From a virus (Duplodnaviria > Heunggongvirae > Uroviricota > Caudoviricetes), in the IMG/VR virus record IMGVR_UViG_3300031555_007106: DNA of 58,548 nucleotides. One strand, given 5' to 3'. Position numbers and translations under genes: made by a program. The notes beneath the pieces are model-generated. The model saw nothing but the letters and a program-made list of their open reading frames with translations. It searched no databases and was not told the origin of the DNA. Shown here piece after piece: positions 15,025 through 58,548 of this stretch. The stretch's first letter is position 1. Each line of letters begins with the position of its first letter.

Positions 15025-15049
15025 ATACCTTGCTATATTGTAAATTCGG

Positions 15050-15281
15050 CTTTACTATAGTGTAAATTCATACACCCCTAAAACCCAATATATGAGAGTG
15101 TTACAGCACTCCCAGCTTTACTATAGTGTAAATTCATACACCCCTAAATCTAATACATATCTTCGAGAATATTGTTCATTACTTTAGAATAGTGCAAATT
15201 CATACACCCCTAAAGTCCTTCAAAAGAAGATGTTGATATAATCAAACTTTAGAATAGTGTAAATTCATACACCTCTAAAGC
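15050..15281 (-). CRISPR. Mini-array A: 4 repeats, 3 spacers (30/31/31 nt), plus a repeat remnant at ~15030-15047
   Basis: 35-nt repeat, sense GCTTTAGAGGTGTATGAATTTACACTAT(AG/TC)TAAAG, at 15050, 15116, 15182 and 15247. Confidence 0.93.
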
Positions 15282-15441
15282 CTCAAATTCAGTTTTACAG
15301 TGTATGTTACACGTATAATCTCGTACGGACTACTAAGTACGAGGTTTTCTGACCTATAAAGGCCAACCTTTGCAAGAGTGGAACTCCGGCGTTAATAAAC
15401 GTCTTACAGGTCCTTCTCGCTCTAAGGGTGCAAAGCCACCC
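15282..15441 (-). ncRNA. tracrRNA-like element A (Cas12f type), fused to array A
   Basis: ~160-nt sequence conserved in six copies. 5' hairpin GGGTG-GCTTTG-CACCC, anti-repeat near the 3' end, ends ATTTGAG at the first repeat. Confidence 0.82.
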
Positions 15442-15464
15442 CGACTACGACTTTATGCCGCTAT

Positions 15465-15540
15465 TGGTTGGGATAGTGGGATTTGAACCCACAAAATCCT
15501 TATCATAACAACAAAACAAAATTATTATAACAGTATCCCA
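15465..15540 (-). pseudogene. tRNA-like element: intact acceptor stem, T-arm and CCA, with D/anticodon arms replaced by one AT-rich hairpin
   Basis: TGGGATA...GTGGG-TTCAAAT-CCCAC-TATCCCA-A-CCA; 76 nt. Confidence 0.75.
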
Positions 15541-15713: not shown

Positions 15714-15771
15714 ATAATTTATTCTACTTTATTATGCTTGCTTTACTACATTTGGAGAGTTATATTGCCCG

Positions 15772-16002
15772 CTTTACTATAGTGTAAATCCATATACCTC
15801 TAAAGCCCCTGAGGATAAACAAATAAGGGACGCATTACTTTAGAATAGTGTAAATTCATACACTTCTAAAGCGAATCCCCGATTTTCCGCTTTGTTATCG
15901 CTCTTTAGAATAGTGTAAATTCATACACCTCTAAAGCTGATGGGTAGTCAGCAATCCAATTGCCATACTTTAGAATAGTGTAAATCCATACGCCTCTAAA
16001 GC
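15772..16002 (-). CRISPR. Mini-array B: 4 repeats, 3 spacers (30/30/31 nt)
   Basis: Repeats at 15772, 15838, 15903 and 15968. Confidence 0.93.
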
Positions 16003-16162
16003 CTCAAATTCAGTTTTACAGTGTATGTTACACGTATAATCTCGTACGGACTACTAAGTACGAGGTTTTCTGACCTATAAAGGCCAACCTTTGCAAGAGT
16101 GGAACTCCGGCGTTAGCAAACGTCTTACGGGTCCTTCTCGCTCTGAGGGTGCAAAGCCACCC
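16003..16162 (-). ncRNA. tracrRNA-like element B
   Basis: Near-identical to element A; abuts the first repeat via ATTTGAG. Confidence 0.82.
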
Positions 16163-16185: not shown

Positions 16186-16372
16186 TGGTTGGAACAGCAG
16201 GTAGTAACCCTATATGTTCCAATATAAGAGAATGCTAACCACTCAGGTGAAAAAAAGGTGTGTTATGATACCTTATCAAGACCTGCCAAAGACATTCTCA
16301 TGCGACACCCTATGTGCCGCTTCCAAGCATAAATAGGAGCGTTGGCTACCCAACAGCAAAGTTAAACTATGC
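16186..16372 (-). ncRNA. Unrecognised structured RNA ending in a CCA-tipped minihelix (copy 1 of 3)
   Basis: Homologous to 53891-54066 and 57957-58155, with compensatory stem changes. Confidence 0.65.
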
Positions 16373-16465
16373 GAACTCGTATTAAACTTTGGTTTCAATG
16401 TGATTTCATAAAAAAACAATCACAAGTATTATAATAGTGCAAGCATTACAATACTTTTGTTGCAC

Positions 16466-18078: not shown

Positions 18079-18223
18079 TAGGTAAATTCATACACCCCTA
18101 AAGCATATTTACGGTATAGAATGCTCGGACTGATGCTTTACTATAATGTAAATTCATACACCTCTAAAACACTATATATAGAGAGGAGTTTTACTATAGT
18201 GTAAATTTATACACCTCTAAAGC
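18079..18223 (-). CRISPR. Mini-array C: 2 full repeats and 1 partial, spacers 18 and 31 nt
   Basis: Repeats at 18189 and 18136, partial at 18079-18104 running into the DUF4317 upstream region. Confidence 0.88.
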
Positions 18224-18382
18224 CTCAAATTCAGTTTTACAGTGTATATTACACATATAGTCTCGTACGGACTACTAAGTACGAGGTTTTCTGACCGTTA
18301 TGGTCAACCTTTGCAAGAGTGGAACTCCAGCGTTAGCAAACGTCTTACGGGTCCTTCTCGCTCTGAGGGTGCAAAGCCACCC
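18224..18382 (-). ncRNA. tracrRNA-like element C
   Basis: Conserved element with variant hairpin TGACC-ATAAC-GGTCA. Confidence 0.82.
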
Positions 18383-20545: not shown

Positions 20546-21898
20546 TTAATCTTCGTTGTTTCCACTTGATTTCAAAAGTTCGTCAATATCCTTAATAAGA
20601 AGAGCCGGAAGAACATCCTTATCCGCATCAAAAACATGACCGCAAGAAGAACATTCATATGTCACAACATCTTCTTCTGTATGTCTTTCACAAGTTGCCG
20701 TCATACACTGAGAGCACCATTTTCTCAGGCCTTTGTATCCAACTTTAATGACCTTGATTCCGTGTTCCTTTGCCTTATATTCGATTTTCTGAGTTAAGTC
20801 AAAGTAAGACCAATCCTTTAAGTAAACATTCTTCTGAAGTTCAGATGACGCAAGTCCGGTTAAATCCTCAAGCTGAATAGTTCCGCAATTATTCTTGATA
20901 GCCCATTCAATGATAGCTCTTGAGTATCTGTGATTGACCGTATTTCTAAAATTCGTAACAGCTTCACTTATATGATTGCGAGCTGACATCTTTCTCTTGA
21001 ACCCTCTTCCAAGTCTTCCGTCCCCGCATAAGGGTGAATCCTTGTAAGCAGCTTGTCCTATGTTAGCACGTCTGGTCTCAATTCTATCACTGAATCTCTT
21101 GATTTCCTTCCCTTCAATTGTCATTACACGAGAAGAATTGCTGAATGCAGCCATAACAGCATTGTGTTCACCGATATGTACGCCCATAATATTTTCTGCA
21201 TCAAGCTCTGTATTAACATCCTTAGTGAATGTATAAGAAAGAAGAAGATACCACTTGCCATCTTCATATACAAGCTTACTTCCGGAAATCTTGTATTCTT
21301 TATCATAACATCTTTCAAGAATTGTCCATACCGAGTTTTTCGCCTTTGCCGGAGCGACCATTATAAACTTAAGACGGGTATCCTTGAGATTATACTTCTG
21401 CATTCCCTTTCTGGATAACAAAGAAAGAGTAACATACCAATCCTTGATACCACCGTTCGGCTCTTTATCAAAACTAATGGCAATGGATTTATTGTGAAGT
21501 TCCATAGGCATTCCTCTTCTGTAGGAAGGAATCGACATATCTCCTCTCAACATATCCTTTTCTCTTTTCTTGAATGTGTTCATTACATTCTGGATTACTG
21601 AACCGAGATTTCGTGTACTCTGAAGGCAGAATTCACCGCTCATTTCCCTATAAAGCAAGCTCTGAAGATTTGTACTGCTTCCGGTCATTTCTTTGATTTC
21701 ATCCTTTGTTTTAGGGTAATCGCCGTGTGTTTCCTTCCACTTAGCCTTAGCTCCATCATACTCCCAGATTAACTGAACTGCACGATTAGCGGCGTTTCGG
21801 GTTTCGTTCTGCAAATCCCATAACATTCGATTCAATTCCTTGAATTCGATGATGTCATCATTCACAGAGATTAACTTCAATTTTACTACTTTTGTCAT
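20546..21898 (-). CDS. cas12f: Cas12f/TnpB-family RNA-guided protein, predicted nuclease-dead (450 aa)
   Basis: Resembles AsCas12f1 as I recall it along its length (LRGDMSIPSYRR, YVTLSLLS, NFRNTVNHRYSR, CGTIQLEDL, DLTQKIEYKAKEHGIKV, CxxC..CxxC). RuvC-I reads MGVHIG instead of GxDxG. Start at 21898 behind AGGAGG. Confidence 0.88.
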   Translation of the reverse strand: MTKVVKLKLISVNDDIIEFKELNRMLWDLQNETRNAANRAVQLIWEYDGAKAKWKETHGDYPKTKDEIKEMTGSSTNLQSLLYREMSGEFCLQSTRNLGSVIQNVMNTFKKREKDMLRGDMSIPSYRRGMPMELHNKSIAISFDKEPNGGIKDWYVTLSLLSRKGMQKYNLKDTRLKFIMVAPAKAKNSVWTILERCYDKEYKISGSKLVYEDGKWYLLLSYTFTKDVNTELDAENIMGVHIGEHNAVMAAFSNSSRVMTIEGKEIKRFSDRIETRRANIGQAAYKDSPLCGDGRLGRGFKRKMSARNHISEAVTNFRNTVNHRYSRAIIEWAIKNNCGTIQLEDLTGLASSELQKNVYLKDWSYFDLTQKIEYKAKEHGIKVIKVGYKGLRKWCSQCMTATCERHTEEDVVTYECSSCGHVFDADKDVLPALLIKDIDELLKSSGNNED

Positions 21899-53173: not shown

Positions 53174-53345
53174 TTTTACTCTTTTAACAACATACGGACG
53201 GGAAACCTCGGTTATTTATAGTTGAGAAGTTCACACATAGCACATATCACATTTCAAAATTTAACATTTTATTCTATCATACTACAATTAAGAGGTGATA
53301 TAATTTTTGTCGAATTCCTCAAAAGGCATTTAATCATCTTGAAAC

Positions 53346-53506
53346 GGGTGGCTTTGCACCCTCAGAGCGAGAAGGACCTGTAAGACGTTTGCTAACGCTG
53401 GAGCTCCACTCTTGCAAAGGTTGACTTTTTGTAAGTCAGAAAACCTCGTACTTAGTAGTCCGTACGAGACTATATGTGTAATATACACTGTAAAACTGAA
53501 TTTGAG
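53346..53506 (+). ncRNA. tracrRNA-like element D
   Basis: Conserved element; a CATACTA promoter core lies at 53278-53284. Confidence 0.82.
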
Positions 53507-53718
53507 GCTTTAGAGGTGTATGAATTTACACTATAGTAAAGTATTGCCATGGTCTATGGGAAAGTAATAACGGCTTTAGAGGTGTATGAATTTACACTAT
53601 AGTAAAGTGGCCAGACCGTTGGATTCGCTGCTTTAGAGGTGTATGAATTTACATTATAGTAAAGATACGAATTCGTACATATAGCTTTAGAGGTGTATGG
53701 ATTTACACCATAGTAAAG
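53507..53718 (+). CRISPR. Mini-array D: 4 repeats, spacers 31/22/19 nt
   Basis: Repeats at 53507, 53573, 53630 and 53684. Confidence 0.93.
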
Positions 53719-53890
53719 TAAAGAGTAAAGCATATAAAAAATCGTGTGTGAGAATGAAAAAAGTTTATAATTTTTTTGTTTTTTTCTATCATACTAAATA
53801 TGTAGTCAGTTATGGTCTGCTTGTACTTTTTGTGCAGTGGATGATAAATTGAATAAAAATACATTTTATTCCAAGATTTAAGACGAGTGA

Positions 53891-54066
53891 GCATAGTTTA
53901 AATCTTGCGTTGGGTCAAGCCAACACTCCTATTTATGCTTGGAAGTGATACATAGGGTATCGCACGAGAATGTCTTTGGCAGAATTTTTACCTCCTTTAG
54001 CGATTCTGAGTGGTTAGCATTCTCTTATACTGGAACATATAGGGTCACTACCTGTTGTTTCATCCA
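53891..54066 (+). ncRNA. Unrecognised structured RNA ending in a CCA-tipped minihelix (copy 2)
   Basis: Homologous to 16186-16372, with covarying stems. Confidence 0.65.
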
Positions 54067-54089
54067 ATAGCGGTATAAAGCCGTAATCG

Positions 54090-54250
54090 GGGTGGCTTTG
54101 CACCCTCAGAGCGAGAAGGACCTGTAAGACGTTTGCTAACGCCGGAGTTCCACTCTTGCAAAGGTTGACTTTTTGTAAGTCAGAAAACCTCGTACTTAGT
54201 AGTCCGTACGAGACTATATGTGTAACACACACTAAAAACTGCATTTTGAG
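54090..54250 (+). ncRNA. tracrRNA-like element E
   Basis: Conserved element; ends TTTTGAG. Confidence 0.82.
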
Positions 54251-54546
54251 GCTTTAGGGGTGTATGAATTTACACTATAGCAAAGCGATTCGTCCTTTCT
54301 TTGTAAGGCGGGTAAGCTTAGGGGTGTATGAATTTACACTATAGTAAAGCGCTCCGCACTTTCCGCAGACGAGCAAGCCTGCTTTAGAGGTGTATGAATT
54401 TACACTATAGTAAAGCTTCAGGACAAAAGAGCCCTTCAGGCCTCGTGCTTTAGAGGTGTATGAATTTACACTATAGCAAAGCACACATATTGATAATCTG
54501 CAATAAATGCAGCTTTAGGGGTGTATGAATTTACACTATAGTAAAG
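54251..54546 (+). CRISPR. Mini-array E: 5 repeats, spacers 30/31/31/30 nt
   Basis: Repeats at 54251, 54316, 54381, 54447 and 54512. Confidence 0.95.
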
Positions 54547-54606
54547 TAGCATGCATAAATCCACTATAATAAAGGAGCAAATTCTTTATTGTAATCTGCA
54601 AGACAC

Positions 54607-57883: not shown

Positions 57884-57956
57884 GTTTTGCGATTTATTCT
57901 TTCATACTATATATGTAAGAGTTAAAATCTTGCATTGTCCAAAACACTTGCGAGTT

Positions 57957-58155
57957 TGCATAGCTGTGTTTTGGTTTCAGATGTTTTTTCTTTTCATCTG
58001 ATACATCCCATATGCTTGGAAGTGGCACATAGGGTGTCGCATGAGAATGTCTTTGGCAGGTCTTGATAAGGTATCATAACACACCTTTTTCCGCCTGAGT
58101 GGTTAGCATTCTTTTATACTGGAACATATAGGGTCACTACCTGTTATTTCAACCA
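57957..58155 (+). ncRNA. Unrecognised structured RNA ending in a CCA-tipped minihelix (copy 3)
   Basis: Homologous to the other two copies; a CATACTATAT promoter core lies at 57903. Confidence 0.62.
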
Positions 58156-58178
58156 ATAGCGGCATAAAGCCGTAGTCG

Positions 58179-58339
58179 GGGTGGCTTTGCACCCTCAGAG
58201 CGAGAAGGACCTGTAAGACGTTTGCTAACGCCGGAGTTCCACTCTTGCAAAGGTTGGCTTTTTGTAAGTCAGAAAACCTCGTACTTAGTAGTCCGTACGA
58301 GACTATATGTGTAACATACACTGTAAAACTGAATTTGAG
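58179..58339 (+). ncRNA. tracrRNA-like element F
   Basis: Conserved element ending ATTTGAG. Confidence 0.82.
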
Positions 58340-58548
58340 GCTTTAGAGGTGTATGAATTTACACTATAGTAAAGCTCGGTAGGCACAGTGCTAACTGCGC
58401 CCAAGGCTTTAGGGGTGTATGAATTTACACTATGGTAAAGCTATCAGCAGTTTGTATACACTTTAGAGATGTATGGATTTACACTATAGTAAAGCCTCTT
58501 ATATTTTTTCAAGACAAAATGAAGCTTTAGAGGTGTATGAATTTACAC
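58340..58548 (+). CRISPR. Mini-array F, truncated by the window end: at least 4 repeats, spacers 31/19/29 nt
   Basis: Repeats at 58340, 58406, 58460 and 58524 (partial). Confidence 0.92.

Follow-up and report, generated by a model that had tools for sequence, protein, structure and literature searches.

The window analysed here is a whole stretch of 58.5 kb from a 193,036-nt metagenomic contig of a mobile element with 35% G+C, and contains 84 ORFs, repeated terminator-promoter cassettes and two tRNA genes. It carries one gene for a Cas12f-like protein and six mini-arrays, each directly 3' of its own tracrRNA gene; three of the arrays (A, B and C) are on the minus strand at 15-18 kb, and the other three (D, E and F) on the plus strand at 53.5-58.5 kb:

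15049..15281, minus strand: array A, four repeats and three spacers
15282..15441, minus strand: tracrRNA gene A, ending in ATTTGAG, with a tRNA-Asn gene just upstream
15771..16002, minus strand: array B, four repeats and three spacers
16003..16162, minus strand: tracrRNA gene B, ending in ATTTGAG
18082..18223, minus strand: array C, three repeats, the last decayed in its 3' half, and two spacers
18224..18382, minus strand: tracrRNA gene C, ending in ATTTGAG
20546..21898, minus strand: Cas12f1-family effector gene, 450 aa, ATG at 21898, AsCas12f/OsCas12f clade
53346..53506, plus strand: tracrRNA gene D, whose last 7 nt, ATTTGAG (53500-53506), are a II-A-like leader end
53507..53719, plus strand: array D, four repeats and three spacers of 30, 21 and 18 nt (with a 36-nt repeat)
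54090..54250, plus strand: tracrRNA gene E, ending in TTTTGAG
54251..54547, plus strand: array E, five repeats and four G+C-rich spacers
58179..58339, plus strand: tracrRNA gene F, ending in ATTTGAG
58340..58548, plus strand: array F, at least four repeats, running off the window end
15442-15540 (minus), 16186-16440 (minus), 53850-54089 (plus) and 57950-58178 (plus): tRNA-Asn and conserved elements upstream of tracrRNA genes

The ORF at 20546-21898 is the sole effector candidate in the window. Its product matches the AsCas12f sequences of the PDB (8j12/7wju/8dzj) with E values of ~1e-76 and the PADLOC Cas12f/Cas12u3 models with E values of 1e-90 to 1e-95, as well as the NCBIfam family TnpB/Cas12f2 and the Pfam family Cas12f1-like_TNB. 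Two hallmarks of type V-F are present: an effector of the Cas12f1 family, of 400-550 aa, with a TNB zinc ribbon and a RuvC fold, and a long tracrRNA with an anti-repeat pairing to the repeat. Judged by effector and tracrRNA, the system is a derivative of Cas12f1 (subtype V-F1, former V-U3). The RuvC triad is not intact, since the RuvC-I motif reads GVHIG, with His replacing the catalytic Asp; GVHI(G/A) is found in all 20 aligned clade sequences at least 44% identical to the effector, versus GVDLG in active Cas12f1. The same RuvC-altered clade has lost the ADYNA context of RuvC-III and kept its Glu, and more distant relatives have kept the RuvC-I D or carry N. With His in place of the RuvC-I Asp the effector probably binds rather than cuts, and the clade as a whole is probably binding-only or altered in its catalysis. 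A cluster of CRISPR-linked nuclease-dead Cas12f proteins, which may or may not be this clade, is mentioned in PMC13472631. The relatives discussed below (L001-L008 and L069) have proteins 50-67% identical to the effector and lie on other mobile elements; as a single query in scans of viral, genome and metagenome contigs, the effector itself retrieved no close relatives. Megablast of window positions 14.7-22 kb against phages gave no match, and the junction pattern described below did not occur in IMG/VR or JGI metagenomes. A second Cas12f-like ORF, raised as a candidate by a two-member PADLOC "Cas12u3" call, was not recovered among the 84 ORFs by phmmer with the effector.

The tracrRNA gene is conserved over ~160 nt, starts with GGGTGGCTTTGCACCC and ends in ...GTAAAACTGAATTTGAG (...CTGCATTTTGAG in module E), with the array directly 3'. 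The D copy can be aligned to the five other window copies and to those of relatives, and the core is similar to the published tracrRNAs of SpCas12f1 and AsCas12f1. The anti-repeat forms a 10-12-bp duplex with nt ~20-32 of the repeat, which is kept through different sequences with compensatory changes in six lineages (the window, L001, L003, L002, L007 and L069); from this co-variation among relatives it follows that the repeat's 3' half and the spacer serve the Cas12f-like protein. In the predicted fold of a single transcript, anti-repeat and first repeat form a cis hairpin with UGAAUUUGAG as the loop, and tracrRNA plus first repeat is, in this model, a natural single guide. A promoter-like site lies upstream of tracrRNA D (53261-53288); neither a promoter-like site between tracrRNA and array nor a canonical terminator at their junction was found. 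As the tracrRNA gene abuts the array, it is the array's sole "leader". Rfam searches at the gathering score returned no Cas9-type tracrRNA, their sole match being a tRNA. Directly upstream of the tracrRNA, behind the same ~23-nt linker, lies either the tRNA-Asn (array A) or a conserved, structured-looking element of ~200-250 nt that ends in a CCA-bearing minihelix (B, E and F); this tRNA or minihelix may direct processing of the 5' end of the tracrRNA, as a signal of tRNA type. A tRNA-Gly follows array A.

At the other end of the tracrRNA gene, AATTTGAG abuts the first repeat in arrays A, B, C, D and F and ATTTTGAG does so in E. The junction thus reads ATTTGAG/GCTTTAG (the slash marking the start of the repeat) in five of the six arrays, and the leader of array E ends in TTTTGAG, exactly as the sequence-only reading had it. 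The repeat start proposed there, G(C/T)TTTAG(A/G)G, holds for the first repeats and most later ones, which open with GCTTTAG(A/G)GG, and breaks down in a few degenerate repeats of A, E and F; the starts deviating from GCTTTAG are AGCTTAGGGG in E repeat 2, ACTTTAG in A repeat 2 and F repeat 3, GATTTAG in A repeat 3, and GTTTTAG in A repeat 4 and C repeat 2. Our recount of the base after TAAAG before the 18 spacers (C ten times, T six times, A twice) reproduced the reported 16 of 18 with C or T, from which it follows that the repeat is 36 nt long with inverted ends GCTTTA/TAAAGC. With a repeat of this length, 14 of the 18 spacers measure 28-30 nt, close to the 29-30 nt first proposed, and four, in C, D and F, measure only 17-21 nt. 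The last repeat base is C in two of the six first repeats and, among the 18 repeats with a spacer behind them, in 10.

The six tracrRNA-array copies are 74-98% identical over ~240 nt; being paralogues, they make their agreement one observation and not six. Array A carries the derived variant TATTCTAAAG in repeats 1-2 and the ancestral TATAGTAAAG in repeats 3-4, and array B the derived variant in repeats 1-3 and the ancestral one in repeat 4. This leader-proximal placement of derived repeats in both arrays, which by our arithmetic has a chance of ~1 in 24, lends weak support to spacer gain, as does the decay of distal repeats in array C and in relatives' arrays. Every repeat also contains a weak sigma-70-like match (TTTAGA, 17 nt, TATAGT; 9/12), for instance at 53509-53537, from which transcription would start near the first bases of the next spacer; the match may be due to chance. 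Repeat-borne promoters are present in some type II-C arrays.

The sequence-only reading had identified ATTTGAG as the leader-end motif of one type II-A group, and this agrees with the published group 1 junction, ATTTGAG/GTTT, followed by a 36-nt repeat that starts with G and ends with C (PMC5382924). The last base of the first repeat is C in 167 of 167 II-A loci in that study, whose passage citing Wei 2015 gives the last 10 leader nt and one repeat as enough for adaptation in S. thermophilus. Our own reference set consisted of real arrays adjoining csn2 genes in Clostridia genomes, most of which show ATTTGAG/GTTTGAGA...AAAAC with 36-nt repeats and 30-nt spacers; 17 of these csn2-linked arrays were combined into a matrix covering 7 leader nt and 36 repeat nt. 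Scored with this matrix, the six window junctions occupy ranks 1-6 of 117,012 window positions, at 10-23.5 bits versus a background of -56 +/- 13. First-repeat junctions of the subclade relatives reach up to 29 bits (1.8-14 in L001, L002, L007, L008 and L069), and 70 other Cas12f1 loci score at noise level. The 12-nt junction alone gives 13.4-15.9 bits in the window and 10.5-20.4 bits in relatives (tail <= 4e-5) and is not I-C-like. Ungapped identity to II-A repeats amounts to 20-26 of 36 positions, versus a mean of 13 and a maximum of 23 in 20,000 shuffles.

G090, a Cas9- and Csn2-positive member of the Oscillospirales, the same order as the carriers of relatives, has an array with the junction ...AAAACCGAATTTGAG/GTTTTAGAGCTG. 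Between -9 and +9 this array agrees with the window in 17 of 18 positions, and of its final 15 leader nt 14 are shared. The pattern WTTTGAGGYTTTAGRG had six matches in 401 genomes, versus ~14 for its reversed control, which makes the bare count meaningless; only the matches of G090 lie in an array. Relatives at 50-67% protein identity keep TTTGAG/GTTTTAG (TTTGGG in L007 and L008), with the middle of the repeat and the tracrRNA anti-repeat altered in concert. The tracrRNA duplex of L003 and L002 does not include the II-A-like termini, and among relatives the distance from anti-repeat to TTTGAG ranges from 0 to ~25 nt, with TTTGAG always next to the repeat.

By these comparisons the II-A likeness of the junctions is real, specific and far beyond chance. 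Its independent weight comes from the relatives and the matrix test, the six window copies being paralogues, and even so it represents only one or two evolutionary events, as the relatives share descent. The match covers the 7-15 nt that precede the first repeat, 8-9 nt at the start and 5-6 nt at the end of the repeat, the repeat length of 36 nt and the spacers of ~30 nt. Part of the 7-nt match comes cheaply, since Cas12f1 leader ends often have a T-run followed by G, and the features specific to II-A are only the final AG of the leader and the repeat ends. Set against a II-A array, the leader end ATTTGAG fits; nt 1-4 of the repeat are GCTT in the window and GTTT in relatives; and the 36-nt repeat has G as its first base and mostly C or T as its last, its 66-bp period with the spacer being also family-wide.

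That period had been taken as type II geometry (36+30), a claim that fell: periods of 65-67 bp occur in the whole Cas12f1 family and equally in I-C arrays from the genomes that carry it, so the spacing does not speak for II-A. In most Cas12f1 relatives, which are 35-38% identical and come mainly from gut Clostridia, a single array with GTTGCAAC...GCGAG repeats follows the gene. The leaders of these canonical arrays (L013-L064) typically end in TTTTGCA/G or TTTTGCT/G, which is the leader end of I-C arrays from cas1/cas2-adjacent loci of the same genomes (L089-L100; the I-C comparison arrays were drawn from cas1-adjacent loci). With 12-nt matrices, 30 of 35 canonical junctions fit I-C better than II-A and 14 exceed the background's 99.9th percentile; in the present subclade the fit is to II-A and not to I-C. 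The repeat of S. palmitatica, the source of SpCas12f1, ends in GCGCGTGGATTGAAAC and is identical to a I-C repeat at 23 of 32 positions by our count. The 30-nt repeats of the Clostridium and Bacillus members we take to be I-B-like. The two junction types seen are thus, on these matrices, matches to II-A and I-C leader ends, and the I-C likeness of canonical leader ends suggests a family-wide dependence on foreign adaptation modules. We found no mention of a family-wide match of Cas12f1 leader ends to I-C in the literature searched.

On the protein tree the RuvC-altered clade has 100/100 support and contains II-A-like arrays in two lineages, the window with L001 and L003/L002/L069/L007/L008, which are separated by lineages with GTTGCAAT repeats (84-88% support). 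Two separated II-A-like lineages indicate that junction type and effector are not coupled. Several tracrRNA-array modules per element (three to five in ~6-10 kb) are common to the RuvC-altered clade, as in L009 (2984-8667), L007, L001 and L003; canonical relatives have the single array after the gene.

The sequence-only reading had also proposed that host II-A Cas1-Cas2(-Csn2) adds the spacers, making the system a II-A/V-F chimera, and had named dedicated cas1/cas2 genes on the element as a refutation. No Cas1, Cas2, Cas4, Csn2 or Cas9 was found among the 84 window ORFs, that is in 58.5 kb of the 193-kb element, nor in the 10-kb flanks of relatives' effectors. The cas9-cas1-cas2-csn2 operon and Cas9 tracrRNA that define a II-A system are absent from the window, and for lack of Cas9 machinery in these 58.5 kb the system is not itself II-A. 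The II-A signature of the proposed chimera stands; its host side found no backing in the carriers of close relatives, G001, G002 and G007, incomplete metagenome-assembled genomes in which no Csn2, type II Cas1 or Cas9 was detected and for which the controls G090 and G012 did score. Four of the seven genomes carrying relatives lack Cas1, and the other three have one long Cas1 each (345-403 aa); the two long-Cas1 loci that were read are followed by a I-C array, and G001 has a I-C module. Conversely, none of 23 Csn2-positive Clostridia genomes contains the subclade. Assemblies being incomplete and the elements mobile, this lack of co-residence weakens II-A borrowing and does not refute it. Comparison of 26 loci around csn2 genes with the window, in search of host spacers directed at this element, yielded only one 29-nt chance match, inside the NrdD gene.

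No protospacers were found for the 16 intact spacers in the window plus 86 loci, for arrays D-E in phages and plasmids, or for three spacers in IMG/VR, and the arrays of the relative L003 had only chance-level matches in phages and plasmids (E 0.5). Array content differs between public gut metagenome runs that have tracrRNA and flanks in common. In runs X2 and X3, D spacer 3 (53665-53683) has 12 extra bases, CTGAAAAAGTAT, at its repeat-proximal end, which make it a normal 31-nt spacer, and a fourth run, X4, has a different spacer at this position. Being 12 nt shorter than in two other public runs, the window copy is a deletion derivative, and would have lost the would-be PAM-proximal seed. No insertion event was seen, and the Logan contigs of the public runs break at repeats, which prevents the phasing of any leader-polarised gain. 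Spacer sets also differ between the duplicated modules A and B. The spacers of E and F (54286-54511 and 58375-58405) are G+C-rich, up to ~60%, and those of array A are A+T-rich, in an element of 35% G+C; the modules seem, from this composition, to target different kinds of DNA.

We propose that the locus comprises Cas12f tracrRNA-array modules that bear II-A integration signals and receive their spacers in trans from II-A Cas1-Cas2(-Csn2, Cas9), a proposal on which our own judgement is evenly balanced. The II-A-like leader end, repeat ends and lengths would be the parts read by the II-A integrase, and the element would gain, or would recently have gained, spacers at the junction of tracrRNA and first repeat while residing in a II-A-carrying host. 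The whole module would be transcribed from the promoter upstream of the tracrRNA, the first repeat folding back on the anti-repeat through the UGAAUUUGAG loop to give a natural single guide; the repeat's 3' half serves the Cas12f-type protein. Against II-A adaptation speak the last repeat base, C in only two of the six first repeats and 10 of 18 repeats overall before a spacer, the four spacers of 17-21 nt and the cheapness of the T-run-G. A further difficulty lies in the PAM. II-A adaptation selects a 3' PAM through Cas9, and Cas12f, like type V effectors in general, reads a 5' PAM, so that most II-A-gained spacers would be without the PAM that the effector needs, barring relaxed PAM recognition.

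The II-A-like ends may instead be a relic of descent, an ancestor of the Cas12f clade having captured a II-A leader-repeat unit to which the anti-repeat then evolved to fit. The arrays would now be static guide stores that change by deletion and recombination only, the II-A-like ends having no present use. This reading, which we regard as possible though doubtful, accounts for the confinement of all II-A-like arrays to one RuvC-altered clade, for the carriers without II-A and for the one short spacer that arose by deletion, and the 5' halves of the repeats are strikingly II-A-like (15 of 18 in L003b), as expected after capture. It is less easily reconciled with the persistence of TTTGAG/GTTTTAG and the 36-nt length despite 50% protein identity and a rewritten repeat middle, since persistence at positions without a role in the tracrRNA duplex suggests selection. 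Nor does it sit well with spacer sets that differ between samples and between modules A and B, or with an array type that, on the tree, has changed at least twice within the clade.

A role at the RNA level, in which the U-run and GAG are kept as the loop or 3' end of the single guide, for example as a processing site or as a partial terminator that would set the ratio of tracrRNA to crRNA, and the II-A likeness is coincidental, strikes us as improbable. Such a role is in keeping with the predicted fold, in which UGAAUUUGAG is the loop that joins anti-repeat and first repeat in a cis hairpin, and with the T-run and G that precede the first repeat in much of the Cas12f1 family. The T-run-GCA end, however, is also found at the leaders of cas1/cas2-adjacent I-C arrays, where there is no tracrRNA, which makes it a leader feature; the II-A likeness, moreover, spans 14 of 15 leader nt and both repeat ends, and the junction has no canonical terminator. 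The candidate pairing partner of TTTGAG, CUCAGA in the 5' part of the tracrRNA, shows no co-variation in our reading of the alignment, and the pairing was dropped since the partner has become CUAAAA in L001 and L003, uncompensated.

We attach little probability to the element serving its arrays in cis through an adaptation module of its own, possibly a II-A-type cas1-cas2-csn2, elsewhere on its 193 kb. The 58.5 kb read are only part of the 193,036-nt contig, and complete CRISPR systems are known from some huge phages and plasmids (PMC11656645); yet no cas1 lies near the effector on relatives' contigs, and the relative-carrying genomes either lack Cas1 (four of seven) or have a single long one (three of seven), followed by a I-C array at the two loci read.

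Quite unlikely, too, is a bilingual chimera repeat, II-A in its 5' half and ends and a Cas12f handle in its 3' half, whose single transcript would give each spacer to two effectors, host Cas9 using the spacer with the downstream repeat 5' half and the element's nuclease-altered Cas12f the upstream 3' half with the spacer, so that 3'-PAM spacers would arm host Cas9 against the element's rivals and Cas12f would bind the subset with its own PAM; in its broader part, this reading has Cas12f1 arrays without adaptation genes re-tuned to whichever module the host has (I-C, I-B or II-A).

Compared with the V-F1 Cas12f systems AsCas12f1, SpCas12f1 and OsCas12f1, the locus has a homologous effector, a long tracrRNA beside the array with a homologous core and anti-repeat, and a crRNA made of the repeat 3' part and the spacer, and it likewise lacks cas1/cas2. 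It differs in having six or more tracrRNA-array modules scattered on a mobile element rather than one array beside the gene, in a tracrRNA-to-first-repeat distance of ~10 nt versus ~110 nt in an As-like locus and ~33 nt in the Sp locus, in His for Asp in RuvC-I, and in leader and repeat ends that are II-A-like and not I-C-like. With II-A group 1 arrays of the S. thermophilus CRISPR1 type (Van Orden et al. 2017, PMC5382924) it shares ATTTGAG, GAG/G(T/C)TT, a 36-nt repeat starting from G with mostly C or T at its end, and spacers of ~30 nt. Unlike in those arrays, there is no cas9, cas1, cas2 or csn2 nearby, the "leader" is a Cas12f tracrRNA gene, and the middle and 3' half of the repeat fit the Cas12f tracrRNA.

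In its mode of working the system is closest to those adapted in trans, with precedents in the plasmid-borne type IV-A3, which uses host I-E (bioRxiv 10.1101/2023.06.23.546257), and in VI-B, which uses II-C in Flavobacterium (PMC8092290). Like these systems, the present one has leader-repeat signals that resemble those of an adaptation-proficient system of the same host group, and no adaptation genes of its own were found in the 58.5 kb read; unlike them, it would pair a II-A donor (3' PAM) with a type V effector (5' PAM), which read opposite flanks. Viral mini-arrays that rely on the Cas proteins of their hosts (Medvedeva et al. 2019, reviewed in PMC11656645) are comparable as short arrays (one to four spacers) on a mobile element, with host-like repeat features and a likely use in inter-element competition; here, by contrast, the element brings its own effector and tracrRNA, and its repeats are chimeric and not host-identical. 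In the literature searched, trans adaptation was not reported for type V-F, and neither a II-A/V-F pairing nor multi-copy, tracrRNA-fused, expandable mini-arrays were found.

This locus and its relatives suggest a testable answer to how Cas12f1 (former V-U3) systems without cas1/cas2 obtain their spacers, namely through arrays marked for integration by a foreign module, with I-C-like signals in most of the family and II-A-like ones in this subclade. Loading by II-A enzymes, if it occurs, would leave a type V effector living on spacers picked for the opposite PAM side, and would bear on the evolution of PAM-relaxed or binding-only effectors. The fusion of a tracrRNA to a minimal, expandable array would be a natural design. 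A mobile-element-borne and probably nuclease-dead Cas12f clade with many guide modules would add to the known uses of CRISPR in inter-element conflict. On the 156-kb contig of the relative L003, an AcrVA2-like gene (20849-21380) as well as ERF, PIF1-helicase and TraX genes lie within 10 kb of the Cas12f-like gene, and this element combines a type V-derived system with a putative anti-type V protein.
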